From contig CAZOBD010000004.1 in assembly GCA_964577665.1 (NCBI GenBank), positions 81 to 64,080 of the forward strand: 64,000 nucleotides of DNA, given 5' to 3'. Below the pieces are notes generated by a model. It saw only the letters and a program-made list of their open reading frames with translations, did not search any database and was not told the origin of the DNA. The translations under genes were made by a program, and so were the position numbers. This document shows positions 8,369 through 53,490 of the stretch, in pieces. This DNA is from an uncultured Hyphomicrobiales bacterium (lineage in GTDB: Bacteria > Bacteroidota > Ignavibacteria > Kapaibacteriales > UBA2268). How positions within the stretch are numbered: position 1 is the stretch's first letter; each line of letters opens with the position of its first letter.

Positions 8369-9856
8369 ATGGAACAGACCGCTGACCTGACCATAGACGT
8401 AAACTCTTATACGCTGACAGCCTTCTTGCTCTATATGCTGATTATAGTAGGCATAGGCATATTCTCTTCAAAATTTTCCTCCAAAGGTATGGCAAACTTT
8501 TTTCTCGGGGGAAGGAAGCTAAACAGATACGTTGTTGCCCTGTCTGCGGTAGTATCAGGACGCAGCGCGTGGCTGCTTTTAGGTTTTACGGGAATGGCTT
8601 ACGTTAGGGGTATGTCGGCAATATGGGCTGCCGCCGGCTATATTGTCTCTGAGTTTCTCCTTTTCTTTTTTTACGCCCCCAGACTGAGAAATTTTACCGA
8701 AAAAAGAGACTGCATAACTCTCCCCGATTTCTTTGCAGAAAGGTTTAATGACAGAACCGGTTCTCTGCGCATAATATTGGTTTCCGTAATAGTTCTCTTT
8801 ATGGTTAGTTATGTATCGGCGCAGTTCGTCGGCGGCGGTAAGGCATTCGCTTCCAGTTTCGGATTAAGCAATACGGCAGGAGTTTTAATAACTGCCGGAA
8901 TAGTTTTGTTTTACACCGTAATAGGAGGATTCCTCGCAGTCAGCCTTACCGATATGCTGCAGGCAATTTTCATGATTATAGCTCTTTTAGTCCTGCCGGT
9001 TGTAGCTATTGTAAATTTCGGCGGCTGGGAGCTAATAACAGCCGAGCTTGCCCGCACGGACACATTATTCTTAGATCCTCTGGCACTTTCGGGAGGGGCG
9101 CTTATCGGATTTCTCGGTATCGGATTGGGTTCGCCGGGTAATCCTCACATTTTAATCCGGTATATGTCCATAGAAAATTCAAAACATCTGAAAGCATCAG
9201 CATATATAGGTACTATCTGGAATGTGCTGATGGCTGTCGGAGCTTTGTTTATCGGTATAGCAGGCAGAGCATATTTTCCTGATTCGGCTTTGCTGCCGGG
9301 TAATGATCCCGAAAACCTGTATCCTCTTCTTGCCGAGAACCAGCTTCATCCCATACTTTTCGGTATGATAATATCCTCAATTTTTGCTGCAATAATGTCC
9401 ACATGCGATTCACAGCTTCTGGTAGCCGCTTCCAGTATTGTAAGGGATATTTATCAAAAGGTTATCAAAAGAGGCAGAGTAGTTTCAGAAAAAACTCTAA
9501 TGATCCTAAGCAGAGTGATGGTAACTGTGCTGGTAGTAGCAGCGCTGATTCTTGGAATGCTTGCTCAAGAGCTGGTTTTCTGGCTCGTTTTATTTGCCTG
9601 GGCAGGTCTTGGAGCTGCTATAGGCCCCGTTTCCATTTTAGCACTGTTCTGGAAGAAGACAAGCTTGTCAGCAGTAACAGCCGGTATGCTGACAGGTACT
9701 TTTACCGTTATTATATGGTATTACATACCGTCTTTGAATGAACTGATGTATGAGCTGGTACCCGCATTTTTTCTAAGTACAGCCGTTACAATTATTGTCA
9801 GCTTGTTTACAAAGGCTCCTGAAAATTCCGAAGCAATGTTTAAGGATATGGAATAA
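8369..9856 (+). CDS. Sodium:solute symporter family (SSF; PutP/PanF-like) transporter
   Basis: 495 aa polytopic membrane protein with SSF-like blocks (GGRKLNRYVVALSAVVSGRSAWLLLG, GGFLAVSLTDMLQA). Confidence 0.75.
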   Translation: MEQTADLTIDVNSYTLTAFLLYMLIIVGIGIFSSKFSSKGMANFFLGGRKLNRYVVALSAVVSGRSAWLLLGFTGMAYVRGMSAIWAAAGYIVSEFLLFFFYAPRLRNFTEKRDCITLPDFFAERFNDRTGSLRIILVSVIVLFMVSYVSAQFVGGGKAFASSFGLSNTAGVLITAGIVLFYTVIGGFLAVSLTDMLQAIFMIIALLVLPVVAIVNFGGWELITAELARTDTLFLDPLALSGGALIGFLGIGLGSPGNPHILIRYMSIENSKHLKASAYIGTIWNVLMAVGALFIGIAGRAYFPDSALLPGNDPENLYPLLAENQLHPILFGMIISSIFAAIMSTCDSQLLVAASSIVRDIYQKVIKRGRVVSEKTLMILSRVMVTVLVVAALILGMLAQELVFWLVLFAWAGLGAAIGPVSILALFWKKTSLSAVTAGMLTGTFTVIIWYYIPSLNELMYELVPAFFLSTAVTIIVSLFTKAPENSEAMFKDME

Positions 9857-9861
9857 CCATG

Positions 9862-10030
9862 ATTTAGGAAAATCACACAAAGGGATGATTATTTTTAAGC
9901 AAGATGTCAGACACCTTTGAGGTGTCGGACATCTGATTATCAAAAAACATCCCCTCTTGAGAGCAATGACCTAACAATTGGAGGAAAAAGATGTCCAACA
10001 TCTGGCAGATGTCGGACATCTGAAGGGCAA
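9862..10030. repeat. Intergenic palindromic repeat cluster: one copy of module C (…CCATGATTTAGGAAAATCACACAAAGGGATGATTAT…, minus orientation) plus two GATGTCNNACATC-type hairpins (9903-9933, 9990-10020)
   Basis: Module C recurs at 12790-12835, 12955-12998, 13673-13715, 37506-37548 and 53140-53180; hairpin arms recur at 37287, 49363, 56667 and 60817. Confidence 0.7.
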
Positions 10031-12589: not shown

Positions 12590-12975
12590 CGGTCCCATTT
12601 TTTTTTCATCTGTTTATTTTATGCCCCACCCTAACCCTCCCCAAAGGGAGGGAATTCAATGATATTGCTCCCTCCCCTTGGGGAAAGCCGGGGTGGGGTC
12701 TCATACGGTTTTTCATCTCATTCCCAAACTCCGATTTGGGAATGTACTTTTCTTTCAAAACTCTGTTTTGCATTAACTCGTAAACAATCAACTCCTTGTG
12801 TGATTTTCCAAAATCATGGGCGTTTCATCTGTTTATATTCGATCCCTCCCCGGTACTCCCTTACAAGAAAAGGAAGGAGAAATATTATTGAAGCCCCTTA
12901 TTTATAAGGGGGTTTGGGGGATCTCTTCTATCGATTTCATTTTTTTTCCAAATATTCATCTCCTTGTGTGATTTC
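12590..12975. repeat. Mosaic of palindromic repeat modules: G/C-rich hairpin (CCCCACCC…GGGTGGGG with nested CCCTCCCC…GGGAGGG), module A (TCCCAAACTCCGATTTGGGA), two copies of module C
   Basis: 12700-12780 is the reverse complement of 53181-53260; modules shared with loci at 13522, 37160 and 53140; unusually G+C-rich for this AT-rich genome. Confidence 0.75.
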
Positions 12976-13521
12976 TTAAATCATGGGGGTTTCATATAGC
13001 ACACTCTGCCTTGTGCAGTTAATATTCAAACTGAGAATATCTGGACGAGAGTAATGTCCTGAAGGATCGAAATTTTGTCTTTCTCTTAAGACGGAGCTTA
13101 AATCCAGTTCAGCCGTGATAAATGCTTCTTTTTCACAAACAGGTTCGATTATCCATGATCCATCAGGGGCAGCAATGCAGGAACCGCCGCCGGCAGGCAT
13201 ACTTTTCATTTTAGATTTTATCAAAGATGCATGAGGCAGTTCGTCTGAAATATTTTTTGTAAAGAGTATTGAAGAAGCAGAAATAACAAAACTCCGCGAC
13301 TCTTTTGCAATAAAGCGGGCAATGTCATAAGTATTTTCCAGACTGCCGGGCCAGACAGCTATATGGACATTTATACCCTGAGCATACATTGCGCTTCTTG
13401 CCAGCGGCATCCAGTTTTCCCAGCAGTTAAGCCCCCAGAGAGTAAAACCGTCAAGCTTATGTGCCGCGATACCGCTGCCGTCACCTATCCCCCATACGAG
13501 TCTTTCTTCATAAGTAGGCAT
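12976..13521 (-). pseudogene. Truncated nitrilase / carbon-nitrogen hydrolase (C-terminal part only, catalytic Cys block [11 protein letters not shown] present, N-terminal Glu/Lys blocks missing)
   Basis: 181-aa ORF begins at conserved internal [12 protein letters not shown] block; the ATG lies exactly at the edge of repeat module B and the last 5 codons are encoded by repeat module C. Confidence 0.6.
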
Positions 13522-13724
13522 GGGGTTTCAGATGGACTCCACTTTTAAAGTGGAGTCCATCTACGAATAAATTTTTCACCATCCCCTTGGGGAGGGCTTG
13601 GGTGGGGTCTCTTACGGTTTTTCTTTTACAATACGATTTTTCCTTCAATATATGGCAAATCTACCAAAAATAATCATCCCCTTGTGTGATTTTCCCAAAT
13701 CATGGTTGTTTCATTTAAAGAAAT
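13522..13724. repeat. Mosaic repeat cluster: module B perfect palindrome AGATGGACTCCACTTTTAAAGTGGAGTCCATCT, G-rich module (CCCCTTGGGGAGGGCTTGGGTGGGG), module C
   Basis: Module B recurs at 37467-37499; G-rich module recurs at 12678 and (inverted) 53395-53440. Confidence 0.75.
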
Positions 13725-17109: not shown

Positions 17110-20100
17110 TTAAATTTTAACAAATTTTAAAACATAATGCCTGCTTTCGTTTGTAACCGTCATATAATAAATACCGGTTGAAAGCAATGATATGTCGATT
17201 TCCCTTGAAATGAAACCTATGTTATGAGTAAATTCCCTTTCCCATTTTGTTTGTCCGAGTACGTCCCGTATTGTAATTAATAACGAAGAATTTGTGTAAA
17301 ATTTATTTTCGTATCTTAGACTAATCAAATCATAAGCTGGATTGGGTGTCAGGCTGAAAATTATTCCTTCAGCTTCTTCTTCTATTGATGAAATAACATC
17401 AAAAGGGTTCGACATAGATGAACAGCCGTATTCATTGAAAATCTCCACGCTGTAATTACCGTATTCTTCTACATTAAAATATCTGCCTTCAGCATCTTCA
17501 ATGACTTCTCCGTCAGAATACCAGATGTGCTTTTCGGCAGGAGGAGCTGTCAATGTTGAACGGTATTGTGAAATTACGGGCTTTTCCGGTACAGGATAAA
17601 ATTCAGCGCTAAAAGGTTCGCTTTCTCCTCTGCATCCGTCGGCTGTAAATCCATAAATTCTGTATATACCCGGTTCTTTTATCCAAATCATTCTGCCGCC
17701 GGAGCCCGTGTTCCAGGTAAGATCTTTAAATCCGAAACCTACCATCAATTTTACGCTGTCGCCTACACATACAGGATAATCACCAATAGGATTAATAACC
17801 AGCTCAGGAACATAATTAGAGCGTACCTTTATTTCTTCTGATCTTGCCCTGCAGCCCTGCTGGTCATAGACCGTAAGATTGTAAGTACCTGACTTTTTTA
17901 CGGTAATGGAACTGCCCGTTTCACCGGTTGACCACTCATAGCGGTAATAACCGTCGGGAGCCTGCAAAATAACACTGTCTCCTTCGCAAAATTCCAATTC
18001 TCCTTTTATTGTAAGCTCGGGCGTTTCAATATCGCAGTTTATTATCTTTGTTTCCCACAATCCTCTGCCGAAAGTTGCCGCCCTGAGTTTTCCGCTGGGA
18101 TAATGTATTTCCAGTTCGTTTACGATCACATTAGGCAGTCCCTTACTAAAGGAAACCCATCCGCCTGTCTCTTCATCCCTGTAAAAAACTCCGATGTCCG
18201 TACCGATAAAAACACGTCCGGGACTGTTTTTCTGATGTATCACACAGTTAACGGGTACATTGGGCAAGGAGCCCGTTATGTTCACAGGGTTTTTATCAAT
18301 TATTTCAATTACTTTATCGTCGGGATTATATCCTGATTGAGAAATCCAGATATGCGACGGATCTTCGGTGTCAACTGATATATATGTTATATATGAAGAA
18401 CTTGTATAAATATTTTCCCATTCTTCGCCCCCGTTTGTCGTTCTCCAAAGTGTACTTCTTGAAGAAGCGTAAATATAATCAGGATTTTTTGAAGATACTG
18501 CTAAAGCGTTCAGCGAGTAACTGCTCCCGAAATTTGATATTTTCTCGGCATTATTCCTGCTTCCGTTTACTTTCCATACATTTCTGTATCCGATATGAAT
18601 AATACCGGGATTTTCCGGGTCAATTACATAAGGTGTAACCCAGCTTCCATATTCATTGGCGTCTGAACTGTTAAAAAAGGAAGAAAAATTATTGCCGCCA
18701 TCTTTGGATTTGTATATATCTCCGTTGTAAAGCGAGCAGTAAACAGTATTTTTATCCGAATAATCAACAAGACATTCCATGCCGTCGCCTCCTCTTACGT
18801 GGAACCAGCCGGGAATGTCTCTTTTTTGAGTGCCGTTGTCCTGACTGCCTCCGAAGACGACCTTAGAGTCTTCTTCCGAACATGCAAGTCTGTAAAACTG
18901 CATGATAGACATACCGTTTGTAATGTCCGTCCAGTTTTTCCCCTCATCGGTTGAGTAGTAAATACCTCCGTCGTTTCCTGCAAAGATAAAACCGTTCAGT
19001 GGATTAAAGATTAAATCGTGCTGATCGGCATGCAGGTAATCTACTCCGTAAGAGCCTGTCCAATGTCCGTTAAGTTTCCATGTGCTTCCTCCGTTAACAG
19101 ATTTCCAGAGATTAATCCCTCCTGCATAGATTTCGTCCTTATCAAAAGGGTTTACAGCAGCGGCTAAATCGTAATTTCCTTGACCGCCCTGATCGCCGCC
19201 GTTTCCGTCTCTGCCTAAAATATTCGGTGAATATGAAACACGCTGCCAGTCCTTTCCTTCGTTTACGGAAACGTAAAAACCTCCGAACCCGTTTGATGAT
19301 GCTTCGGAAACAAGGGCATATACATTTTCGGGAGCGTCGGGGGTTACTTCAAGGACTATTCTGTTTGCATTTGAAAAACTTTTCACTATGTTCCACTTTT
19401 CACCCGTGTCAGTGCTTTTCAAAATAGAGATATTTCCGTTCCTGTTGTAAGTGGAAACATACATAACTTCGGGATTGCCGGGTTTAAACTCCATATCGCG
19501 TGCAAAAAAAGAGGATGAAACCGAATACCAGTTTTCTCCGCCGTCGGTAGTTTTGTAAATGCCATCTCTTGCAGCCGCTATAACCACATCTCCGTTGTCG
19601 GGATGCACAAGAAGCCTGCTTACCAGATGCTGATGAGACATACTTTTGTTCAAAGAAGTTATTTCCCAGCTGCCGCCGCCGTCTGTGGATTTAATAACTC
19701 CTATGCTGTAGTTTCCGGAGCCGTAATAATAGTTCACATCGCCTGTTGCGGCATACACAATATCCGGATTTTTCGGAAAAACGGCTATATCGGAAATACC
19801 AATTGAAAGAAACTGCGTAAAAGGATGTGTTTTCCAGCTCTGCCCGAAGTCTGTTGTTTTCCATATACCGCCGGTTGCCGCACCAACCCAAAAAGTGTTT
19901 TCGTCTGTCGGATGAAAACGAATACAGCTTACTCTTCCCAGTCCTGATGATTCGTAATAAAGCTGATTTTTTGGTACGACCGAGGGGCCTAATTCAATCC
20001 ACTCTGCTTCCATAAGAGGAGAGTCGAAGTTTTGCTGCTTTTCAACGAAAGACTGCATTTCATTATAAATTTTCACGGCATTAGGAAAAGTATCTTTTCC

Positions 20101-20346
20101 GAAAAGGCGCTGCTCCCAAAAATATTCATACCGCTTGAACTGCTTCCAGCCCTGACCGCTCTTTATTTCCCTGCCGTCCCAGTAATCATAAAAAGCTTCT
20201 TGGGATTCACGGAAGCTAATAATCTTATCATTATTAAAATCATACTTATCTGCATTATACAGGAACTGCTGAGGAAATGCCTGCGCTGAAAATACAATAA
20301 AAATAACTGAGATAATAAATCCTCTCGCTGTCGTAACAATGTGCAT
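17110..20346 (-). CDS. Paralog of the upstream BNR/Asp-box beta-propeller T9SS cargo protein
   Basis: 1078 aa; same architecture and shared N-terminal motif GWKQFKRYEYFWEQR; Asp-boxes (TTDFGQSW, STDGGGSW, TTDGGENW, STDTGEKW, STDEGKNW, TTNGGEEW); T9SS CTD (…TPNPAYDLISL…YYMTVTNESRHYVLKFVKI). Confidence 0.7.
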   Translation of the reverse strand: MHIVTTARGFIISVIFIVFSAQAFPQQFLYNADKYDFNNDKIISFRESQEAFYDYWDGREIKSGQGWKQFKRYEYFWEQRLFGKDTFPNAVKIYNEMQSFVEKQQNFDSPLMEAEWIELGPSVVPKNQLYYESSGLGRVSCIRFHPTDENTFWVGAATGGIWKTTDFGQSWKTHPFTQFLSIGISDIAVFPKNPDIVYAATGDVNYYYGSGNYSIGVIKSTDGGGSWEITSLNKSMSHQHLVSRLLVHPDNGDVVIAAARDGIYKTTDGGENWYSVSSSFFARDMEFKPGNPEVMYVSTYNRNGNISILKSTDTGEKWNIVKSFSNANRIVLEVTPDAPENVYALVSEASSNGFGGFYVSVNEGKDWQRVSYSPNILGRDGNGGDQGGQGNYDLAAAVNPFDKDEIYAGGINLWKSVNGGSTWKLNGHWTGSYGVDYLHADQHDLIFNPLNGFIFAGNDGGIYYSTDEGKNWTDITNGMSIMQFYRLACSEEDSKVVFGGSQDNGTQKRDIPGWFHVRGGDGMECLVDYSDKNTVYCSLYNGDIYKSKDGGNNFSSFFNSSDANEYGSWVTPYVIDPENPGIIHIGYRNVWKVNGSRNNAEKISNFGSSYSLNALAVSSKNPDYIYASSRSTLWRTTNGGEEWENIYTSSSYITYISVDTEDPSHIWISQSGYNPDDKVIEIIDKNPVNITGSLPNVPVNCVIHQKNSPGRVFIGTDIGVFYRDEETGGWVSFSKGLPNVIVNELEIHYPSGKLRAATFGRGLWETKIINCDIETPELTIKGELEFCEGDSVILQAPDGYYRYEWSTGETGSSITVKKSGTYNLTVYDQQGCRARSEEIKVRSNYVPELVINPIGDYPVCVGDSVKLMVGFGFKDLTWNTGSGGRMIWIKEPGIYRIYGFTADGCRGESEPFSAEFYPVPEKPVISQYRSTLTAPPAEKHIWYSDGEVIEDAEGRYFNVEEYGNYSVEIFNEYGCSSMSNPFDVISSIEEEAEGIIFSLTPNPAYDLISLRYENKFYTNSSLLITIRDVLGQTKWEREFTHNIGFISREIDISLLSTGIYYMTVTNESRHYVLKFVKI

Positions 20347-22551: not shown

Positions 22552-22643
22552 TATTATTCTCTCAAATTAACTCTATTTCACAGCATCATCTATTTAACAA
22601 TGATTCAAGTTTCAAAATTTTGTCTGATTTATGATTTATGGAA

Positions 22644-22883
22644 TTAAAGGATTATAAAATTCTCTTCAATTCGTAATTGGTCATTCGTAATTCTAAGGAA
22701 GCGGTACCATTGCCAGCCTAACATGAACTCAGTTTGCTGAAATTTATCCAAATCAAACGGTTCCGTATATGTTGAACTATTCGCATAGTAAGTAAATGTG
22801 AGAGAAGAAGGTTCTATATCCTGGGCATTCAAATTATAAGCACAGCAAAAAATAACTACTGCAAAAATCATCATCTTTTTCAT
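22644..22883 (-). CDS. Hypothetical small secreted protein
   Basis: 79-aa ORF with signal peptide (MKKMMIFAVVIFCCAYNLNAQ). Confidence 0.3.
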   Translation of the reverse strand: MKKMMIFAVVIFCCAYNLNAQDIEPSSLTFTYYANSSTYTEPFDLDKFQQTEFMLGWQWYRFLRITNDQLRIEENFIIL

Positions 22884-22887
22884 TGCT

Positions 22888-24255
22888 TTAACCCTCCTTC
22901 ACCACTTTGTAAGTTGTTACATTGCCACCACATATAAGTCTTATAAAGTAAATGCCGTTAGGGTATAAGGAAAGATTAATTGTTAAAGAACTACTGTCTA
23001 TTAAATCTTCCAATAAAATAGTCCCATTGTTATTGATTATTTCATAATATTGATTAGTGCTACTGCAGTTAACTTCAATATTAATTGTTCCATTAGTTGG
23101 ATTGGGATAAAAAGTACTATCAACAATAGAATCATCATTAATGCTACTAGGTTCCCATCGAGCTTTTACAACAGCGCAGATATCATACTTACCCGCTCCA
23201 ATATATTTATTGTTTTTTGAAACATCTAAGGACTTTGCTGAAGTAATAATATTATTGTACTGATATGTAATTATCTCATTTAATATGTCATATACAAATA
23301 CATCTCTATAAGCAGAAATACCAATAACTAAATATCTATCATCAATTGAATATGCAATCGATCTAAAGCAGGTATCTTTTTTAGTTATGGTCTGTTTTAA
23401 TTCTCTTTTTTCAAAATCCCATATTTTTACGGGTCCACCTGCAGATGCCAGATATTTTCCGTCGTGGGAAAAACAGATGTCCCTGATAGCGTAATCGTGT
23501 GTGCCGAGAATACCTTCGTATTTCATTGGGTTTGTATTAAAAATGTGAATTGGGCTATTTGAACCATTTTGATAAAATGTGCTAACAACAAAGTGTTCCT
23601 CGTCAGGTGAGAATTTTATTTTTCCATACTCCGTATCGGTTGATTGATATGCAATTTCATCAGTTCCTAAATCCCAAATACATATTTTACATTTTAATTG
23701 CCCGATACGTGCAACAACAGCTAAGTATTTGCTACTCGGTGAAATATCTATTGATTTAAAGGAAACCGAATCTTCATCAATAGTGAATGTTTTAACTAAT
23801 TTACCTGTTTCCGTTTCAAATAAATATGCAGAGTTATTTTTATAGCTGCCGTCATAATAGTAGAAGTTACCTCCTGCAACTGCAATAATGCTGCCGTCAG
23901 AATTAAAGTCAACACAATTGGTATAATTTGGCTGCTCAAATTCTCTAATCGAGTCTCCTGTCTCAACATCAAAAAGCTTCGGGTTCCTGTAATCAGCCGC
24001 AACCGCAAGATACCTGCTGTCGGGAGAAAACTTTACGCGGTTTATTTGTACACCTAATTCCTTTACCCACAGCACATCGGGGTCATCCTGTGCAAAAGCA
24101 GGAAGAGAAAGAAGAAGTAAAAGCGCCGCCGCCAGAAGAAGGGATGATCCCCCCAGCCCCCTTATAAATAAGAGTGTGTTTGAATTGCTGTGCTCTGATT
24201 TTGTTTTCAGAGCTGCCTTCTCCACCTTTACCAGAAAACTTTTTTTTGTAAACAT
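22888..24255 (-). CDS. WD40-like/beta-propeller repeat protein with T9SS C-terminal sorting domain (paralog A)
   Basis: Repeated …(K)FSPD(S/E)RYLA…/…FSHDGKYLASAGG…KIWDFEKRELK blocks; CTD …FYPNPTNGTINIEV…IYFIRLICGGNVTTYKVVKEG; start placed at MFTKKSF (conserved with paralog B) rather than ORF-track 24285. Confidence 0.6.
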   Translation of the reverse strand: MFTKKSFLVKVEKAALKTKSEHSNSNTLLFIRGLGGSSLLLAAALLLLLSLPAFAQDDPDVLWVKELGVQINRVKFSPDSRYLAVAADYRNPKLFDVETGDSIREFEQPNYTNCVDFNSDGSIIAVAGGNFYYYDGSYKNNSAYLFETETGKLVKTFTIDEDSVSFKSIDISPSSKYLAVVARIGQLKCKICIWDLGTDEIAYQSTDTEYGKIKFSPDEEHFVVSTFYQNGSNSPIHIFNTNPMKYEGILGTHDYAIRDICFSHDGKYLASAGGPVKIWDFEKRELKQTITKKDTCFRSIAYSIDDRYLVIGISAYRDVFVYDILNEIITYQYNNIITSAKSLDVSKNNKYIGAGKYDICAVVKARWEPSSINDDSIVDSTFYPNPTNGTINIEVNCSSTNQYYEIINNNGTILLEDLIDSSSLTINLSLYPNGIYFIRLICGGNVTTYKVVKEG

Positions 24256-24382
24256 AGTTTTTCCTTTTATTTTTTCAAAAAACACACCAATTATAAATAT
24301 AATAAAAAATAAGATAAATAGTTACAAAATAAAAAACATAAAGAATCGTAAAATTATTAAAGCTACAAAATAAGGAATTTTT

Positions 24383-24637
24383 ATGACGGAGTATAAAGAG
24401 ATAAACAAAGTATTATACAGAAGCGGCAAGCCTATTGCATTACTGCTTGATATTTCAGAATTTAAGTTGTTTTTAAAAGATAAGGAAAATTTTAATATCA
24501 TAAGCAGACCTGTCGAAGAAAAAGGTAAAAGCATCAGTGATTTTGTCGGGGCTTTAAACCATTATGCAAATCCTGAACTGATTGAGAAAGAAAAAGATGC
24601 ATGGAAAAATGCAGTGAAGGAAAAATATGCTTGCTGA
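24383..24637 (+). CDS. Putative antitoxin of a VapBC-like toxin-antitoxin pair
   Basis: 84-aa ORF overlapping the downstream PIN-domain gene by 11 bp; no family recognised by eye. Confidence 0.5.
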   Translation: MTEYKEINKVLYRSGKPIALLLDISEFKLFLKDKENFNIISRPVEEKGKSISDFVGALNHYANPELIEKEKDAWKNAVKEKYAC

Positions 24638-24983
24638 TGCAAATGCCATACTTCGTATATTTTTGAACGACATACCCGATCAAAAAGAAACAGCCCTTGA
24701 ACGGATAAAACAGCAGAAAACTAAAATTCCCAATGAAGTAATTGCAGAAGTCGTTTATGTGCTTACCACTGTTTATCACGTTACAAGGGAAGAAATAGCT
24801 TTAAATTTAGAAGGCTTGCTTAAGTCCCGTGACATTATTGCTGAACCTTTGCAAATTCTTGCCGTGAATTTCTTCAGGAATGAGGCTCTTGACATAGTAG
24901 ATTGTTTTCTTCTGGCGGGCAATTATCTTTTCAACGAGGATGTTCTGACCTTTGACAAACGGCTTTTAAGCAAATTGAGATAA
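24627..24983 (+). CDS. vapC: PIN-domain ribonuclease toxin (VapC-like)
   Basis: 118 aa; acidic PIN residues in expected positions (MLADANAIL…, …VVYVLTT…, …DCFLLA…, …TFDKRL…). Confidence 0.7.
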   Translation: MLADANAILRIFLNDIPDQKETALERIKQQKTKIPNEVIAEVVYVLTTVYHVTREEIALNLEGLLKSRDIIAEPLQILAVNFFRNEALDIVDCFLLAGNYLFNEDVLTFDKRLLSKLR

Positions 24984-25018
24984 ATCATTATACTTCCGGT
25001 ATTATAAATTGTTTTTCC

Positions 25019-25060
25019 GGCGGTTAGAATTGTGCTTCTGGCGGTTAGAATTGTGCTTCT
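25019..25060. repeat. Perfect 2x21-bp tandem direct repeat GGCGGTTAGAATTGTGCTTCT
   Basis: Direct reading; lies just downstream of vapC. Confidence 0.8.
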
Positions 25061-25203
25061 AAGGGCTTAGTTGAACGATTCTGTCTATTTATCATATATT
25101 TTTCTTCCTTTATCAAGCAATTCTCTTAGTTTATCATTCAATTCTATCTGTTTATCAAACAATCCATGGCAATATAATTTTTTTTATTTTCGGAAGAAGG
25201 CTC

Positions 25204-26565
25204 TTATCTCTTCACAATAATTTTAATTGTTTTAAAAAAATCGCTGCAAGAAATATTACAGAAGTAAGTGCCTGATGATAATCCGTCTGCATTTATGTTC
25301 ATTGTATTTAAACCTGCTTCAAGATACCCCTCAAATACTTTTTTAACTAATTGACCGTTGATATTATTTAAATCAATATTAGTTATGCCGTTATGTGGAA
25401 GGTTGAAACTTATAACAGCTTCATTTGTTATTGGGTTAGGATAAATAATGCTGTTGTTTTCATTAAAAGGTTCCTCAATAATACTTGGTACCCATTTTGC
25501 ATTTAATAATAATACTCTATATCCATAACCGGAACCAATATATTGATTATCTGATGAAACATCTAACGATAGTGGTGTACCTTTTACAGAATTAAGATGA
25601 TAAACATATTCAGTATTATTTATATCATATATAAAAACATCTCTATAAAATAAAAAACCCATAACAAGAAAATTGTCATCCATAGAATATGCAATCGATC
25701 CAAAGCCGGTATCTTTTTTAGTTATAGTCTGTTTTAATTCTCTTTTTTCAAAATCCCAAATCTTAACATCTCCCGCTGCAGATGCCAGATATTTCCCGTC
25801 GTGGGAAAAACAGATGTCGGCGATAGCATAATCATGTGAGCCGAGAATACCTTCGTTTTTCATTGGGTTTGTAGAAAATACATAGATATAGTTGGTTTTT
25901 GATTCTGGATATGGGTAGGTTTGGCATATAACGAAATGCTGATCATCAGGTGAAAATACAACTTTACTTATATACTGATAATTGCTTTGATATATTATTT
26001 CATTTGAAATTAAATTCCAAATTTTTATTAAATACCTATTTGTTCCACTTTTAAAAACAGCCGCTAATAATTCACCATTGTGTGAAATATCAATTGAAGT
26101 AACATAAACTGAATCTTCATTCAGATCAATTTTTTTTAATTCATCTCCAGTTTCCACACTATATATATTGATGTAATCATTATATCCGGCGCTTGCTAAA
26201 AGAGAGCCGTCATCAGTAAAATCAAGTGTATTTGTTCCTCCACCAATAAATTCTCTAATCAAATCACCTGTTTCTACATCGAAAAGCTTCGGATTCCTGT
26301 AATCAGCCGCAACCGCAAGATACCTGCTGTCGGGAGAAAATTTCACGCAGTTGATTTTCACACCTAATTCCTTTACCCACACCACATCGGGGTCATCCTG
26401 TGCAAAAGCAGGAAGAGAAAGAAGAAGTAAAAGCGCCGCCGCCAGAAGAAGGGATGATCCCCCCAGCCCCCTTATAAATAAGAGTGTGTTTGAATTGCTG
26501 TGCTCTGATTTTGTTTTCAGAGCTGCCTTCTCCACCTTTACCAGAAAACTTTTTTTTGTAAACAT
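25204..26565 (-). CDS. WD40-like/beta-propeller repeat protein with T9SS C-terminal sorting domain (paralog B)
   Basis: First ~75 codons and ~210 bp of 5' region essentially identical at DNA level to paralog A (23975-24262 vs 26275-26572); second near-identical tract 23380-23530 vs 25695-25845; CTD …IYPNPITNEAVISFNL…TYFCNISCSDFFKTIKIIVKR. Confidence 0.6.
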   Translation of the reverse strand: MFTKKSFLVKVEKAALKTKSEHSNSNTLLFIRGLGGSSLLLAAALLLLLSLPAFAQDDPDVVWVKELGVKINCVKFSPDSRYLAVAADYRNPKLFDVETGDLIREFIGGGTNTLDFTDDGSLLASAGYNDYINIYSVETGDELKKIDLNEDSVYVTSIDISHNGELLAAVFKSGTNRYLIKIWNLISNEIIYQSNYQYISKVVFSPDDQHFVICQTYPYPESKTNYIYVFSTNPMKNEGILGSHDYAIADICFSHDGKYLASAAGDVKIWDFEKRELKQTITKKDTGFGSIAYSMDDNFLVMGFLFYRDVFIYDINNTEYVYHLNSVKGTPLSLDVSSDNQYIGSGYGYRVLLLNAKWVPSIIEEPFNENNSIIYPNPITNEAVISFNLPHNGITNIDLNNINGQLVKKVFEGYLEAGLNTMNINADGLSSGTYFCNISCSDFFKTIKIIVKR

Positions 26566-26639
26566 ATAAACCTCCACGGGATAAATTTTCAATTTTGCAA
26601 TTTACAATTTTCAATCAATTTAACAATGATTCAATTTTC

Positions 26640-26720
26640 AATGATACCGCGTCAGCGGTTAAATATTTGTAGCAAATTGTTTTAAAAGAATATCTTACCG
26701 CATCAGCGGTTAATTATTTA
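26640..26720. promoter_or_regulatory. Two copies of an ACCGC(G/A)TCAGCGGTTAA(A/T)TATTT palindrome-containing site upstream of paralog B (candidate operator)
   Basis: Copies at ~26646-26668 and ~26700-26722; each contains inverted repeat ACCGC…GCGGT; location is 5' of the minus-strand gene start at 26565. Confidence 0.3.
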
Positions 26721-26855
26721 ATCCCTGACTAGATAACTCTAACTTTTCTTTGCACTTATTACTTCTCAAAATCTCATATCTTAATATCACACGTACTAAT
26801 AAGACACATGAAACGCAAAAACATCTCAGGATTTATTTGAATTTATCTGTTTATT

Positions 26856-27155
26856 TTACTTCTCAACGAAATATTTATACTCGGGCTGCGAGCCCGGATT
26901 GCTAAGCGGAGAAAGCCACATTCTAATGATTTCTACAAGCTGTTCAGGAGATTTTGTCCGCATTTTTTTGTTGAATTCCTTAATAAGAGCCTCAAGATAA
27001 GCGTGGCGCTTCGAGTAAAAAAGATTTTTTTTTCGGAGGGACATAAGGGCATAATTGTCAATACGCTCCCTTCCCTTTCCCGGCACTTCGGGAGGTATTT
27101 TTTTGTAGATGTCTATTGTATCATTTCTAAACTTGTAATAGCGGACTTTCGCCAT
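26856..27155 (-). CDS. Hypothetical protein
   Basis: 99-aa basic ORF, no family recognised. Confidence 0.35.
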   Translation of the reverse strand: MAKVRYYKFRNDTIDIYKKIPPEVPGKGRERIDNYALMSLRKKNLFYSKRHAYLEALIKEFNKKMRTKSPEQLVEIIRMWLSPLSNPGSQPEYKYFVEK

Positions 27156-27159
27156 TTTT

Positions 27160-27395
27160 CGACCCCTCCCCGTCCCTCCCTTACAAGTAAGGGAGGTAGC
27201 ATTAATTTTTAATTTTTCAATTATCTTATAAAATAGTTAATATTTTTTTAAAATCAAAATAATATAATCTGATACATACGAACAAAAGCCGCACTCAGCA
27301 AAGAATGCGGCTTTCTAACTATCAGTTTAGGGGAGTTCTAAATATTGCTAAACTGTCATTCCTGCATTCGCAGGAATGACAGTTTTTAGAACCCG
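27160..27395. repeat. Intergenic hairpins: CCTCCCTTACAAGTAAGGGAGG (27170-27200) and a ~60-bp imperfect palindrome GTTCTAAATATTGCTAAACTGTCATTCCTGC-ATTC-GCAGGAATGACAGTTTTTAGAAC (27330-27392)
   Basis: Direct reading; G/C-rich CCCTCCC motif shared with the other mosaic loci; sits between two minus-strand genes, so may act as terminator/insulator. Confidence 0.6.
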
Positions 27396-27415: not shown

Positions 27416-28774
27416 TTAGCTGCGGAGAGACTGTCTTGCTTTAACATCCATTGATTCCTTCAGAGAGATAATAATTTTCTCTGCCAGCTGCTCTCCGACC
27501 ACACTTTCAAGATTTTCAGTGTTAGAAATAAATTCTGTAACTGCGTCTTCAATTCTTTTGCGTACTATTTCGGAAGCCTGTCCGACCAAAGCCGTAACGA
27601 GCAGATGAATGTCATGCTGCTGGCCGCGCAGAGCCTCGAGCTGGCTGCGGTTTGCATCTTCCATCTTCTTGAGCATCTTGTCCATGCGCTCCTCTTCTTC
27701 GGTATAAATAAGAGTAATGGCAAGCAGTGCCAGCATAGTAAACTCAAGGAAAATAGCCAAAAGAATAAAAGAAGGTTTCGAAGCCGGGATAAACTTCAAC
27801 CCGCGGATACCCACAGCAACGATAAGGAAAGCTGCGCCGCCGTATGCCAGACCTGTTACGTTGTTCGCATATTTTTCAGTAAAGTGATGCGCCATGTATA
27901 TTCTCAAGCCTGCAAAGATGAGTAAATGATTTCTTCTCCAGAGAAGGCTGGATTTTGTATCTTCGATTTCTTTAAGCACGAAGTCAGAGAAGAACTCCTG
28001 TATTCTATTGTAAAGCGCTCTGTTTCGAAACGCAACCAAATCTACATTTTCGTCATAAAGATCATCAAAAGTAATTGCCTGACGGGAAGAGGCAGATTCA
28101 TCCGAGCCTGTTCTGTCCCAAACAGTACGGAAGTATCTTTCTACATCCATGGGATCTTTTTCTCTTAGTTTGTCGTCGGGCATGGTAAGAAGTTCGACAA
28201 TGGTATCCGTAAAGCCTGTCTGCAGCCTGATTTTAACCTTGGTATGGTCTATCTGCTTGTCGAACAGCACGGACATAAAACCTATGCTGGTAGGCAGAAT
28301 CATCGTAACCAGAGCTGTAACAAAAACTGCCAGCACAAGCGCAAGCCACCATAGCCCTACCCATGGCTCCAAAATAATAGCATGCTCGCCGAGCACTTCC
28401 GACTTTGCATAAAACTCCTGGGCGCCCTTGACATAACCGTGTTTTGGTTCGGTTCTTTCTTCAAAAGAAAAGTCGAAGATAAAGTCGCCGTTAATATACT
28501 CTTTTTTGATTTCAACGTCTCTGCCCTGATAAAGGTTTTCTTTGTCCTTTGATACCGAAGCCCATACCAGACCCTCAAACTCAACGAAACCTATTTTCGT
28601 AAGCTGCTCGCCTGAAGGCTGGAACAAAGGAACAACGAAACCGGCTATGCCGGCGGGAATTACCTTCAATTGGAAGACCACAAATAAGACCACAACCATT
28701 ACAATTGCAATGATTATCTGCTGCGGGCCAAGTTTCTGACTCTTGGACTTTTCGCTATAGGGTGAATTAGCCAT
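27416..28774 (-). CDS. Hypothetical polytopic membrane protein with C-terminal coiled-coil
   Basis: 452 aa; ~5 predicted TM helices; C-terminal ~100 aa heptad-like charged segment (…EEERMDKMLKKMEDANRSQLEALRGQQ…). Confidence 0.45.
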   Translation of the reverse strand: MANSPYSEKSKSQKLGPQQIIIAIVMVVVLFVVFQLKVIPAGIAGFVVPLFQPSGEQLTKIGFVEFEGLVWASVSKDKENLYQGRDVEIKKEYINGDFIFDFSFEERTEPKHGYVKGAQEFYAKSEVLGEHAIILEPWVGLWWLALVLAVFVTALVTMILPTSIGFMSVLFDKQIDHTKVKIRLQTGFTDTIVELLTMPDDKLREKDPMDVERYFRTVWDRTGSDESASSRQAITFDDLYDENVDLVAFRNRALYNRIQEFFSDFVLKEIEDTKSSLLWRRNHLLIFAGLRIYMAHHFTEKYANNVTGLAYGGAAFLIVAVGIRGLKFIPASKPSFILLAIFLEFTMLALLAITLIYTEEEERMDKMLKKMEDANRSQLEALRGQQHDIHLLVTALVGQASEIVRKRIEDAVTEFISNTENLESVVGEQLAEKIIISLKESMDVKARQSLRS

Positions 28775-33088: not shown

Positions 33089-33283
33089 ATGAGCGAATTA
33101 CCCATTCCCGAAGAAAAAATCAAAGAGATTGTTAAAGAATCACTTTCAGAAATTCTAAGCAGCAACAAATCCTTTTTTGGTGAAATACTTGCAAGAGCAA
33201 TCGAAGACATAGATTTAGCAAAAGAACTCCGGCGCGCCCAGCAAAGTAAAGAAATTCAGCAGATTGAATCACTTGAATCATAG
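33089..33283 (+). CDS. Hypothetical small acidic protein
   Basis: 64-aa ORF; no family recognised. Confidence 0.3.
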   Translation: MSELPIPEEKIKEIVKESLSEILSSNKSFFGEILARAIEDIDLAKELRRAQQSKEIQQIESLES

Positions 33284-33300
33284 AGATGATACAGAAATAT

Positions 33301-34485
33301 CTATCGGATAATAATAAAACTTTCCCTGACAATAAATCTCTTACAGGAAACACATAAATAATATAATCCTGAGGGTAGATTCGTTATATCCAATTTAATA
33401 TTATCCTGCTTGTAACCCGCATCATGTTTTTTGATGTAAAGCGTTTCTCCTAAATGATTTATTATTTTAACAGAACAAGTTTTTTCAAAAAAAGCAGGCA
33501 ATTTGAAACTTAATTCATCCTCAGCAGGATTTGGAAAAACAATCATTGCTGATTCGGCTGTTTGGTGTTTTAATCCCGAGCCGCTTTCCGTTACAGTAAT
33601 ATTCAAAGAAATTGTGTCATTATCGTTATATTCGTCGGCATTCCCGTTAGGATCGCTTACCCAGAAAGAAATATTATATAATCCTTTTTCGGCAAAATTT
33701 ATTTTTTCAGGTAAATCTATTCTTAACCTGCCGAAAGTTTCAACCTCAAGACCGCTTATTACATGAGAATATATCTGCTGTTCATCATTAATCCGCCAAC
33801 TGATATTGAATTGATTCAGCTTATCAATGCCAAAATTACTAATTTCTATCTGAGCGGTATAATCTCCCGGAGTCAGAAAAGCCGGCAGATTGACATCATC
33901 AAGGGAAATATCATTTTGATGCAGCTCGACTATCTCAATATCATCCAGAAACAGCATCCATCCGTCCCTGCCCACTCCTCTAAATGCAAAATGTATTTCT
34001 TCGCCTGCATAAATACTAAGATCTATCTTTGGATATTCGAAGTTACAAGGGGGGATACTTTCGTAAAGCATCTCGAAATCACATTCTATATCGGCGCCAT
34101 TGTTTGAAACCAAAAATTGATATTTTTCCCAATTATCTTCTTTATTGCTCGAATTTCCTGCCCGCCAGAGAATGTAATTATTTTGAGTAAGCTCTATCTT
34201 CGGAGATATCAGCCAGTCATCAGCCTGCTTTTCAACTTCATATTTGGAAGAAGTAATCACAAAATTGTTATTTGGTTCGTGAGGAATCTCTCCGACAACC
34301 CATGCCTCTTCACTGCCCTTAAAATACTCAAGTACCGAATTATGCCCGTCGTTGTTTATTGTAAGATAAATTGGAGACAAGGTATCTGCCGACTCAAAAT
34401 CTTCATTAAATATCAGTTTTTGTGCTTTAATGTCATGAAAGAAAAGTAAAAACAATACTGAAATGAAAATTAGTTTCATGTTCAT
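33301..34485 (-). CDS. Hypothetical secreted protein with T9SS C-terminal sorting domain
   Basis: Signal peptide MNMKLIFISVLFLLFFHDIKAQ; CTD …VFPNPAEDELSFKLP…YYLCVSCKRFIVRESFIIIR. Confidence 0.5.
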   Translation of the reverse strand: MNMKLIFISVLFLLFFHDIKAQKLIFNEDFESADTLSPIYLTINNDGHNSVLEYFKGSEEAWVVGEIPHEPNNNFVITSSKYEVEKQADDWLISPKIELTQNNYILWRAGNSSNKEDNWEKYQFLVSNNGADIECDFEMLYESIPPCNFEYPKIDLSIYAGEEIHFAFRGVGRDGWMLFLDDIEIVELHQNDISLDDVNLPAFLTPGDYTAQIEISNFGIDKLNQFNISWRINDEQQIYSHVISGLEVETFGRLRIDLPEKINFAEKGLYNISFWVSDPNGNADEYNDNDTISLNITVTESGSGLKHQTAESAMIVFPNPAEDELSFKLPAFFEKTCSVKIINHLGETLYIKKHDAGYKQDNIKLDITNLPSGLYYLCVSCKRFIVRESFIIIR

Positions 34486-34626
34486 TTTCCCGCTGAATGT
34501 CAAAATATAAACGCTGCCCTTAACCAGATACACTCATATTCATTAATTGTTAGCGTAAATATTACAATATTCGGCATTTTAATAGAGCTTATGATATTAA
34601 TATATCATCATTAAGCACAACTTCTC

Positions 34627-37159: not shown

Positions 37160-37580
37160 TTCAATGGGTGAACACGAAGGTTCGCCACTACATGCCAAAC
37201 AGAACAACGTAGGGGCAGACCTGCGTGTCTGCCCTGAAAAAGAACACGCAGTTCTATGGGCGAACACGCAGGTTCGCTACATTAAAGATGTCCAACATCT
37301 TTTTCCTCCATACTGTGCATCCCCTCCCCAAGAGGGGATTAAAGGGTGTGTTCCTTATACGTGAGATTCTGAAACAAGTTCAGAATGACATCCATGATTT
37401 CTTTTTGCATCTCATTCACAAACTCCGATTTGGGAATGTACTTTTCTTTCAAAACTCTGGGTTTTTAGATGGACTCCACTTTAAAAGTGGAGTCCATCTA
37501 CGAATAATCATCCCTTTGAGTGATTTTCCCGAATCATGGATGTTTTGTCTGAATTTTAAGTCTAAATGCCGAAGCTGCAG
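37160..37580. repeat. Largest mosaic repeat cluster (~420 bp): modules E, GATGTCCAACATC hairpin, G/C-rich CCCCTCCCCAAGAGGGGA, F (CTGAAACAAGTTCAG), A, B, C concatenated
   Basis: 37310-37395 is the reverse complement of 53395-53490; module B identical to 13530-13563; module E to 32905-32970; module C to 13673 etc. Confidence 0.8.
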
Positions 37581-53139: not shown

Positions 53140-53490
53140 AGCCATGATTAGGGAAATCACACAAGGAGATGATTATTTTAGAGTTAATGCAAAACAGAGT
53201 TTTGAAAGAAAAGTACATTCCCAAATCGGAGTTTGGGAATGAGATGTAAAATGTCATTCAAAGTACATTCCCAAATCGGAGTTTGGGAATGAGATGTAAA
53301 ATGTCATTCAAAGTACATTCCCAAATCGGAGTTCGGGAATGAGATGTAAAATGTCATTCTGTCCCTGTGATGAACTTGTTTCAGTATTGTTTCAGAATCT
53401 CACGGATGAGAGGGACACACCCCTTAATCACCTCTTGGGGAGGGGATATTCTTAACTTGAGATGCTGAAACAAGTTCAGCATGACAGCCA
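53140..53490. repeat. Mosaic repeat cluster incl. module C (inverted), 3x50-bp perfect tandem array (53211-53360) each with module A palindrome TCCCAAATCGGAGTTTGGGA, G-rich module, module F
   Basis: Direct reading; 53181-53260 = reverse complement of 12700-12780; 53395-53490 = reverse complement of 37310-37395. Confidence 0.8.

Follow-up and report, generated by a model that had tools for sequence, protein, structure and literature searches.

Concerted evolution by ectopic gene conversion is known from several sets of bacterial paralogs, for example tufA/tufB and the opa family of surface proteins in Neisseria. In Bacteroides, paralogous genes for outer-membrane proteins can trade promoters or 5' ends through invertible shufflons, a process that needs inverted repeats and a site-specific recombinase. 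Here we describe a locus with features of both kinds of system in a stretch of 64,000 nucleotides (the window) of contig CAZOBD010000004.1, an NCBI contig of 65 kb from a metagenome-assembled genome (MAG). Two neighbouring genes, A and B, encode predicted beta-propeller cargo of the type IX secretion system (T9SS) and flank a putative toxin-antitoxin (TA) module (Table 1). Ectopic gene conversion between A and B is well supported by the sequence comparison. The account that we consider likely combines an old duplication, repeated conversion, an independently acquired TA module and a possible penalty on collapse of the pair.

The likeness to tufA/tufB and opa lies in tracts of zero or low synonymous divergence within diverged sequence, in tract edges that fall where homology ends, and in a mosaic ancestry. 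Unlike in those families, however, it is mainly the predicted export leader and the first blade of T9SS cargo genes that are homogenised, and there are two visible copies only and no archive of silent cassettes. With the Bacteroides shufflons the locus shares surface or secreted protein paralogs that have common 5' ends, but its repeats are direct, A and B have no promoter sequence in common and a recombinase is missing from the block. A shufflon or promoter swap was ruled out on these grounds, the open reading frames (ORFs) of 22552-27340 having given no recombinase match.

The TA module resembles VapBC in its PIN toxin with four acidic residues, its small overlapping upstream gene, its organisation as one operon and its mobility across phyla, whereas its 84-aa partner lacks a recognisable AbrB, ribbon-helix-helix (RHH), Phd or helix-turn-helix (HTH) domain. 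The setting of the module recalls the Vibrio superintegron, where TA loci among directly repeated cassettes prevent large deletions (PMC5543033). As with relBE1/parDE1 of that superintegron and mosAT of SXT (PMC5543033), the module lies within a deletable segment bounded by direct repeats. Unlike in superintegrons, the segment is a single 2.3-kb unit between two coding repeats of 184 bp, with no attC and no integrase.

The first-pass annotation had called A and B same-strand propeller genes, and indeed both are on the minus strand and combine WD40 repeats with a sorting domain. The repeats score 59 bits in A and 68.7 bits in B against PF00400 (cut-off 27). The C-terminal domains score 42.7 and 40.3 bits against PF18962 (Por_Secre_tail; cut-off 27) and 44.4 and 42.6 bits against TIGR04183 (cut-off 23), so that both proteins carry the sorting domain of type A T9SS cargo above the curated cut-offs. 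The AlphaFold2 model of A (mean predicted local distance difference test score, pLDDT, 84.9) consists of a helical leader (1-55), 28 strands forming seven blades (residues 61-364, with pLDDT above 90 across these residues), a disordered linker and a C-terminal beta-sandwich (383-453). Foldseek aligned it to the seven-bladed WD40 propellers 5yzv, 7big and 3ow8 with template-modelling (TM) scores of 0.86-0.89. Repeats above threshold and a closed fold of seven blades thus mark the central domain as a seven-bladed WD40 beta-propeller. By inspection, the leader has an unusually long n-region of 30 aa and an h-region LLLAAALLLLLSL, followed by the motif AFA-Q.

Among 5.8 billion clusters, nothing is closer to A than B or to B than A, their overall amino-acid identity being 56%; the next homologue, C, is 41% identical and the rest are below 30%. 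A profile search of metagenome contigs with A, B and C returned generic WD40 proteins only (22-32% identity). A protein search with the leader alone gave no matches and is uninformative, as A and B themselves were also missed. Exact-protein look-up gave no record for A, for a C-terminal fragment of A predicted from a unitig, for the 79-aa and 99-aa ORFs of the neighbourhood or for the protein P0005. Judged by sequence and model, A and B are best explained as secreted or surface-attached propellers that are exported by the T9SS and form a lineage-specific tandem pair. Several further ORFs with a sorting domain occur in the window, for example at 17110..20346 and 33301..34533, an indirect sign of T9SS machinery in this genome.

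Outside the tracts that they share, the two genes are only 35-65% identical in DNA sequence. At their 5' ends, by contrast, they carry perfect direct repeats of 184 bp at an offset of 2310, with the first mismatch at 24072, and over the longer stretch of 319 bp that includes them (23938-24256 versus 26248-26566) the identity is 95.6%. The repeat that had been put at about 290 bp of essentially identical DNA is therefore real, although its perfect part is shorter and its full extent is not free of mismatches. The sequences 5' of the two starts are unrelated (30-53% identity in blocks of 30 nt). Since identity begins 1 nt before the ATG, the 5' untranslated region (UTR) and the promoter lie outside the shared repeat; the shared 5' UTR that had been proposed does not exist, and a cassette-like exchange of promoter and leader fails in its promoter part. 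The ATG itself is backed by this edge and by the start on the contig that carries C. A second, internal tract exists as annotated earlier, but it is 89.4% identical rather than nearly identical (offset 2337, longest exact run 32 nt), and the second pair of coordinates first given for it was about 20 nt off register.

Divergence along the codon alignment of A and B (Nei-Gojobori proportions of synonymous and nonsynonymous differences, pS and pN) is strongly stepped. In codons 1-61 both pS and pN are 0, without a single difference at 46 synonymous sites. Codons 62-105 have a pS of 0.35 and a pN of 0.04, and codons 239-318 a pS of 0.27 and a pN of 0.11. The remaining gene bodies reach a pS of 0.59-0.63 and a pN of 0.42-0.48, with synonymous substitutions per site (dS) above 1 and thus saturated. 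The pS of the newest tract, 0 of 46 sites, is accordingly far under the flanking background, and coincidence is ruled out. Because selection at the protein level cannot erase all synonymous change, codons 1-61 must have been homogenised recently.

Homologue C provided an outgroup. It is encoded on a Logan contig from another metagenome (L085, run SRR6924042), is 66% identical to B in nucleotide sequence and is frameshifted. In a three-sequence test, which compares A, B and C only and has C as its sole and partial outgroup, the informative sites are clustered along the gene (chi2 141.7 with 28 degrees of freedom, p=4e-17; 0 of 2000 permutations reach this value). Third positions alone cluster as well (p=0.0017). 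The comparison of paralogs for conversion tracts that the first-pass annotation had recommended thus gave incongruence along the gene. Sites grouping A with B concentrate in alignment columns 31-90 and 241-330, and those grouping B with C in columns 211-240 and 391-480. More specifically, in columns 211-240 and 391-450, the latter within the sorting domain, B and C share 50-73% of their amino acids versus 23-36% for A and B, such that the sorting domain of B resembles that of C and not that of A. Columns 61-90 and 241-330 have A and B as the closest pair, with a pS below those of A-C and B-C, and columns 151-180 place A nearest to C. The older 5' tract, too, is dominated by sites that group A with B (22 versus 3 and 2). 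The internal tract is conserved in C at the protein level, yet A and B are closer there than either is to C.

This switch of the closest pair from segment to segment points to a true mosaic family, that is to an old duplication followed by several exchanges between A and B of varied ages. Zero synonymous divergence, graded tracts and the incongruence with C, taken together, argue for ectopic gene conversion beyond what purifying selection alone would give, as had been proposed at first reading.

The module between the two genes was also seen in the first reading, as a PIN ORF with an overlapping upstream ORF of 84 aa, and this arrangement holds, the overlap being 11 nt. The two TA genes are opposite in strand to A and B, divergent from A and convergent with B. 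The toxin passes PF01850 with 34.1 bits (cut-off 23.6; E=4.7e-8), and its acidic quartet D4, E41, D92 and D110 is invariant in 14 homologues; the toxin is presumably active. The partner matches no Pfam family (even at E<=10), no NCBIfam family and nothing in PDB below E=1. Among 1.84 billion representatives it has 24 relatives at E<=1e-3, with similarity in the C-terminal half only, and relatives show weak sub-threshold matches to DUF2281 or RelB only. Its C-terminal motif G.L..YA..L..EK.AW..AV..KY is also present in the partners of related PIN toxins. Thus, of the name VapBC, the toxin half stands, with its acidic quartet and with a small upstream partner that overlaps it and is conserved with it, whereas the partner matches no VapB or other antitoxin family and shows none of the recognised DNA-binding folds (AbrB/MazE, RHH, Phd/YefM, HTH). 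Judged by these matches, the pair is a PIN-type type II module with an antitoxin outside any curated family.

The nearest relative of the toxin (74% identical) is encoded on a 723-bp ENA contig (L111) with the same pair of 84 and 118 aa. DNA homology of this contig to window positions 24326-24961 is 72% and includes about 57 nt 5' of the antitoxin start; further upstream the contig is unrelated to gene A and has a different neighbour. Pairs of 90 and 124 aa are found on three more contigs (L112-L114), so that the layout of a small ORF overlapping a PIN gene recurs in L111-L114. Other toxin relatives are at most 50% identical, belong to Firmicutes and Actinobacteria and have a 90-aa partner with a weak RelB match. 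The presence of relatives in other genomic contexts and phyla indicates that the module is mobile. The idea of an insertion hot spot is weakly supported, by the different context of L111 and by HicB- and HicA-like genes downstream of the B-like gene on L085.

The following course of events would account for these observations. An AT-rich accessory block would have come to hold an old tandem duplication, whose gene bodies and sorting domains are by now saturated at synonymous sites. A and B would then have exchanged sequence repeatedly by RecA-type ectopic gene conversion, of which we infer both the direction and the mechanism. Earlier events may have covered codons 62-105 and 239-318 and since have partly decayed, and the latest would have homogenised the start codon and codons 1-61, halting 1 nt before the ATG for want of further homology. 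The TA module would have been acquired independently and inserted into the spacer on the opposite strand, along with about 57 nt of the sequence that preceded it at its source. If the two leader copies recombined, 2,310 bp would be lost, namely the TA module and the body of B, and loss of the module may penalise such a collapse of the duplication through post-segregational toxicity.

Several points weigh against this account. The only outgroup is C, which is partial and frameshifted. Conservation of blade 1 and blades 5-6 at the amino-acid level is common to C, so that purifying selection contributes to the tracts at codons 62-105 and 239-318. The sequence is a MAG contig, in which bubble-popping or over-homogenisation may have made the leaders look slightly more alike than they are. 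Independent Logan contigs break at 22769 and 25260 although the window has no repeat of at least 31 nt at these places. Finally, a stabilising effect of the TA module, plausible as it is, is purely conjectural.

The alternative that survives best concerns this last point and is that the TA module has been selected for stabilising the tandem duplication, with B and the spacer shielded from repeat-mediated deletion, rather than being a neutral selfish insertion. The module does lie inside the 2,310-bp segment that is deletable by recombination between the 184-bp direct repeats, which makes a stabilising role plausible, and the superintegron offers a precedent. In addition, L085 apparently has its HicB- and HicA-like genes between the B-like gene and the possible start of a second paralog. 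After the HicA-like ORF this contig continues with TTGCAAAATTGAAAA, as upstream of B, and then with an ATG, where it ends; 17 of the first 22 nt match the start of A and B. The best match of this tail in the window is the region upstream of B (score 37, versus 18.2 +/- 2.7 for shuffles, 0 of 500 of which reach it). Both ends of L085 fall inside leader regions, as would be expected if that organism had an exact leader repeat. However, the second paralog is weakly evidenced, as other AT-rich places of the window score 33-34, and HicAB at the equivalent position is suggestive only. Moreover, TA genes are common near other genes here, such as a RelB-like ORF at 33089..33283, and a distant WD40 homologue with a sorting domain (P0040) is single-copy and without such a module. 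We consider a selected stabiliser rather unlikely.

A bolder version would be a recurrent, selected architecture, in which two lineages independently recruited different TA families (PIN and HicAB-like) to the same spacer between leader-sharing paralogs, the module penalising collapse and conversion keeping the leader identical. We regard it as quite improbable; if true, recurrent TA spacers would help to preserve young duplicates much as TA loci stabilise superintegrons, but in miniature and without an integrase. The B-like gene of L085 is itself split by a frameshift near nt 302, in an A-rich run (L085:240-310), and is either a pseudogene or the product of an assembly error.

An assembly artefact, with the contig chimeric at the repeat or similar leaders homogenised, would make the identity or the adjacency of A, TA module and B unreal. 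The source of the window, a MAG contig, speaks for it, as do the fragmentation of the unitig-style Logan assemblies across 22769-27336 and the fact that full-length A or B is on record nowhere outside the NCBI contig. We compared the window with independent Logan assemblies of three runs. One contig (L001, run SRR7048228) matches 24227-25260 at 100% identity: it opens with exactly 30 nt (k-1) of leader and then runs into the TA module. Such a start corresponds to a branch of the de Bruijn graph at the 5' edge of identity, and hence the repeat edge is present in the reads of another assembly. Two further contigs (L002 and L003, both 100% identical) end at 22769, and another (L084, 100% identical) starts at 27336. 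A collapsed repeat, moreover, would leave one copy and not two, and the stepwise divergence from 0% to 11% to 45% across intact reading frames is unlike a collapse. An artefact is thus a very improbable explanation. The breaks at 22769 and 25260, which are seen in two or three runs, hint at strain variants, further genomic copies or drops in coverage.

Identity of the leaders might also be kept by selection at the nucleotide level, on an element of mRNA structure or translational control or on a recombination or regulatory DNA site; possibly the leader even derives from the interspersed repeat elements of the genome. In line with this, a stretch of 26 nt within the leader (24146-24171 and 26456-26481) reappears with 24 of 26 matches at 12898-12923, in an intergenic insert rich in repeats. 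Four copies of the 10-mer CTTCTGGCGG are present in the window (24129, 24909, 25035 and 26439, versus 0.12 expected), each of them inside the block, namely in both leaders, the PIN toxin gene and the 21-bp tandem. The GC content at third codon positions (GC3) is 0.41 in the leader and 0.41-0.45 in leader plus blade 1, unlike the 0.17-0.30 of the gene bodies; in core genes it is 0.39-0.47, and this core-like GC3 is compatible with either GC-biased conversion or a separate origin of the 5' module. Compared with shuffles, the leader RNA has a slightly stronger fold, but the score is marginal and not significant (z=-1.86, with 5 of 200 shuffles folding as well). Furthermore, Rfam gave no match, the reading frame of the tract is intact and encodes a canonical h-region with the cleavage motif, and identity ends at the ATG without the UTR in which regulatory RNAs usually lie. 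Selection on the nucleotide sequence therefore strikes us as highly improbable.

That there was no conversion at all, and that the pattern arose because purifying selection was stronger in the signal peptide and some blades after one old duplication, is hardly credible: blade 1 and blades 5-6 are indeed protein-conserved in C too and the pN of the tracts is low, but such selection cannot keep 46 synonymous sites unchanged at a background pS of about 0.6, which contradicts it for codons 1-61, and elsewhere the A-B pS of the tracts is 0.20-0.35 versus 0.5-1.1 for A-C and B-C while the closest pair switches by segment.

Table 1. Features of the propeller gene pair, the TA module and the surrounding block (positions in the window)
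Feature	Position	Strand	Remarks
Low-GC accessory block	22552..~26850	.	about 33% GC versus 39.6% in the rest of the window
28-nt direct repeat, left	22588..22615	plus	window self-search, E=0.003
79-aa ORF	22644..22883	minus	N-terminal signal-like sequence; begins 5 nt past the stop of A
Gene A	22888..24255	minus	455-aa predicted secreted protein; 56-aa leader/putative signal peptide (AFA-Q), propeller, linker, T9SS type A C-terminal domain (383-454)
Internal tract	23339..23536	minus	A codons ~239-318, blades 5-6; pairs with 25676-25873 in B
Older 5' tract	23938..24072	minus	A codons 62-~106, blade 1; pairs with 26248-26382 in B; 89% nt identity
Perfect 184-bp repeat, copy 1	24073..24256	minus	1 nt upstream, ATG and codons 1-61 of gene A
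Divergent intergenic region	24257..24382	.	126 bp, AT-rich; gene A start to TA operon
Putative antitoxin	24383..24637	plus	84 aa; overlaps the toxin gene by 11 nt
PIN-domain toxin (VapC-like)	24627..24983	plus	118 aa; PF01850
21-bp tandem	25007..25060	plus	2.6 copies (Tandem Repeats Finder, TRF); just 3' of the toxin stop; perfect pair 25019-25060
Heptad-repeat mini-ORF	25085..25162	minus	25 aa (MFDKQIELNDKLRELLDKGRKIYDK); probably a gene remnant
Gene B	25204..26565	minus	453-aa paralog of A, architecture as in A
Perfect 184-bp repeat, copy 2	26383..26566	minus	in gene B
28-nt direct repeat, right	26614..26641	plus	49-76 nt upstream of the ATG of B

The spacer and the surroundings of the pair have some further characteristics. 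From 24326 onward, the intergenic region between A and the TA operon travels with the TA module; the region shows no relationship to the sequence 5' of B. The perfect 2x21-bp tandem that had been noted behind the toxin gene is present as described; it was rejected as a candidate TA operator, since it sits downstream of the operon. A second array of 21-bp periodicity (25088-25163) is due to the heptad-repeat mini-ORF. RNA folding of the spacer between toxin and B is not significant (z=-1.05), and scans of the block for sigma-70 promoters and terminators did no better than shuffles. Upstream of B, a 24-nt hairpin TACCGCrTCAGCGGTTAAwTATTT occurs in two copies 51 nt apart (26645-26668 and 26696-26719), one of which scores as a terminator-like site of the plus strand. 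The 79-aa ORF next to A has no family match and no counterpart beside B.

The block is flanked by a conserved threonine aldolase-thioesterase pair on one side and by core-like genes on the other. The enzyme pair is conserved in relatives, where synteny ends at the thioesterase. In the search of genome contigs, the best relative of the aldolase (56% identical) belongs to a 'Bacteroidetes/Chlorobi group' MAG, and the thioesterase shares 46-51% identity with its counterparts in that MAG, in Kapabacteria, in bacterium HR20 and in a Chlorobiota MAG. Going by sequence relationships, the host is a deep lineage of the Fibrobacteres-Chlorobi-Bacteroidetes (FCB) group. Of the hallmarks of a genomic island, low GC and a direct repeat are seen, the 28-nt copies being identical at 26 of 28 positions and bracketing the small ORF, A, the TA pair and B, whereas an integrase and a tRNA target were not found: the window contains no tRNA gene. 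The block also lacks known RNA families, with no Rfam match at or near the gathering score. Searches of genome and metagenome contigs yielded no relative close enough to reveal an empty site; the flanking repeat may be an att site, but neither an integrase, a tRNA nor an empty site accompanies it.

Elsewhere in the window, short interspersed repeats of 40-100 nt (88-100% identical, in both orientations) are found in intergenic positions at 9855-9896, 12598-12975, 13521-13714, 37319-37545 and 53142-53486. In this family, 50-nt units are arrayed in tandem at 53210-53359, and the whole has the look of repetitive extragenic palindromic (REP) or miniature inverted-repeat transposable (MITE) elements. 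The region 12784-12996 contains an insert of about 130 nt (12829-12956), which sits where a nitrilase-like gene, 12976..13521(-), has its 3' end and is flanked by an imperfect duplication of about 40 nt of the gene end. The 26 nt that nearly match the A/B leader belong to this insert, and the first half of the insert resembles 27157-27200 (motif CCCCTCCCC..CCCTTACAAGnAAGGGAGG). Beyond B, a 99-aa ORF of core-like GC (26856-27155, minus strand) has no family match and no record as a called gene, and a palindromic element of the GGGAGG type (27174-27197) lies directly upstream of it. A perfect palindrome with a 16-bp stem and a 4-nt loop (27350-27385) is situated downstream of the gene 27416..28774(-), and L084 stops 14 nt before it. 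The RelB-like ORF at 33089-33283 (plus strand) encodes a solitary antitoxin of 64 aa with no obvious toxin partner and is convergent with the T9SS sorting-domain cargo gene at 33301-34533 (minus strand).

Gene conversion and mobile TA modules are both well known, and as every component of the locus is a known phenomenon, it is a clear but ordinary example. What it adds is a clean and quantifiable case in which the predicted export leader and the first blade of T9SS cargo genes undergo concerted evolution, in a poorly sampled lineage, with a TA module placed exactly where repeat-mediated deletion would remove it. If TA occupancy of such spacers were general, selfish modules may help tandem duplicates to persist until they have diverged.

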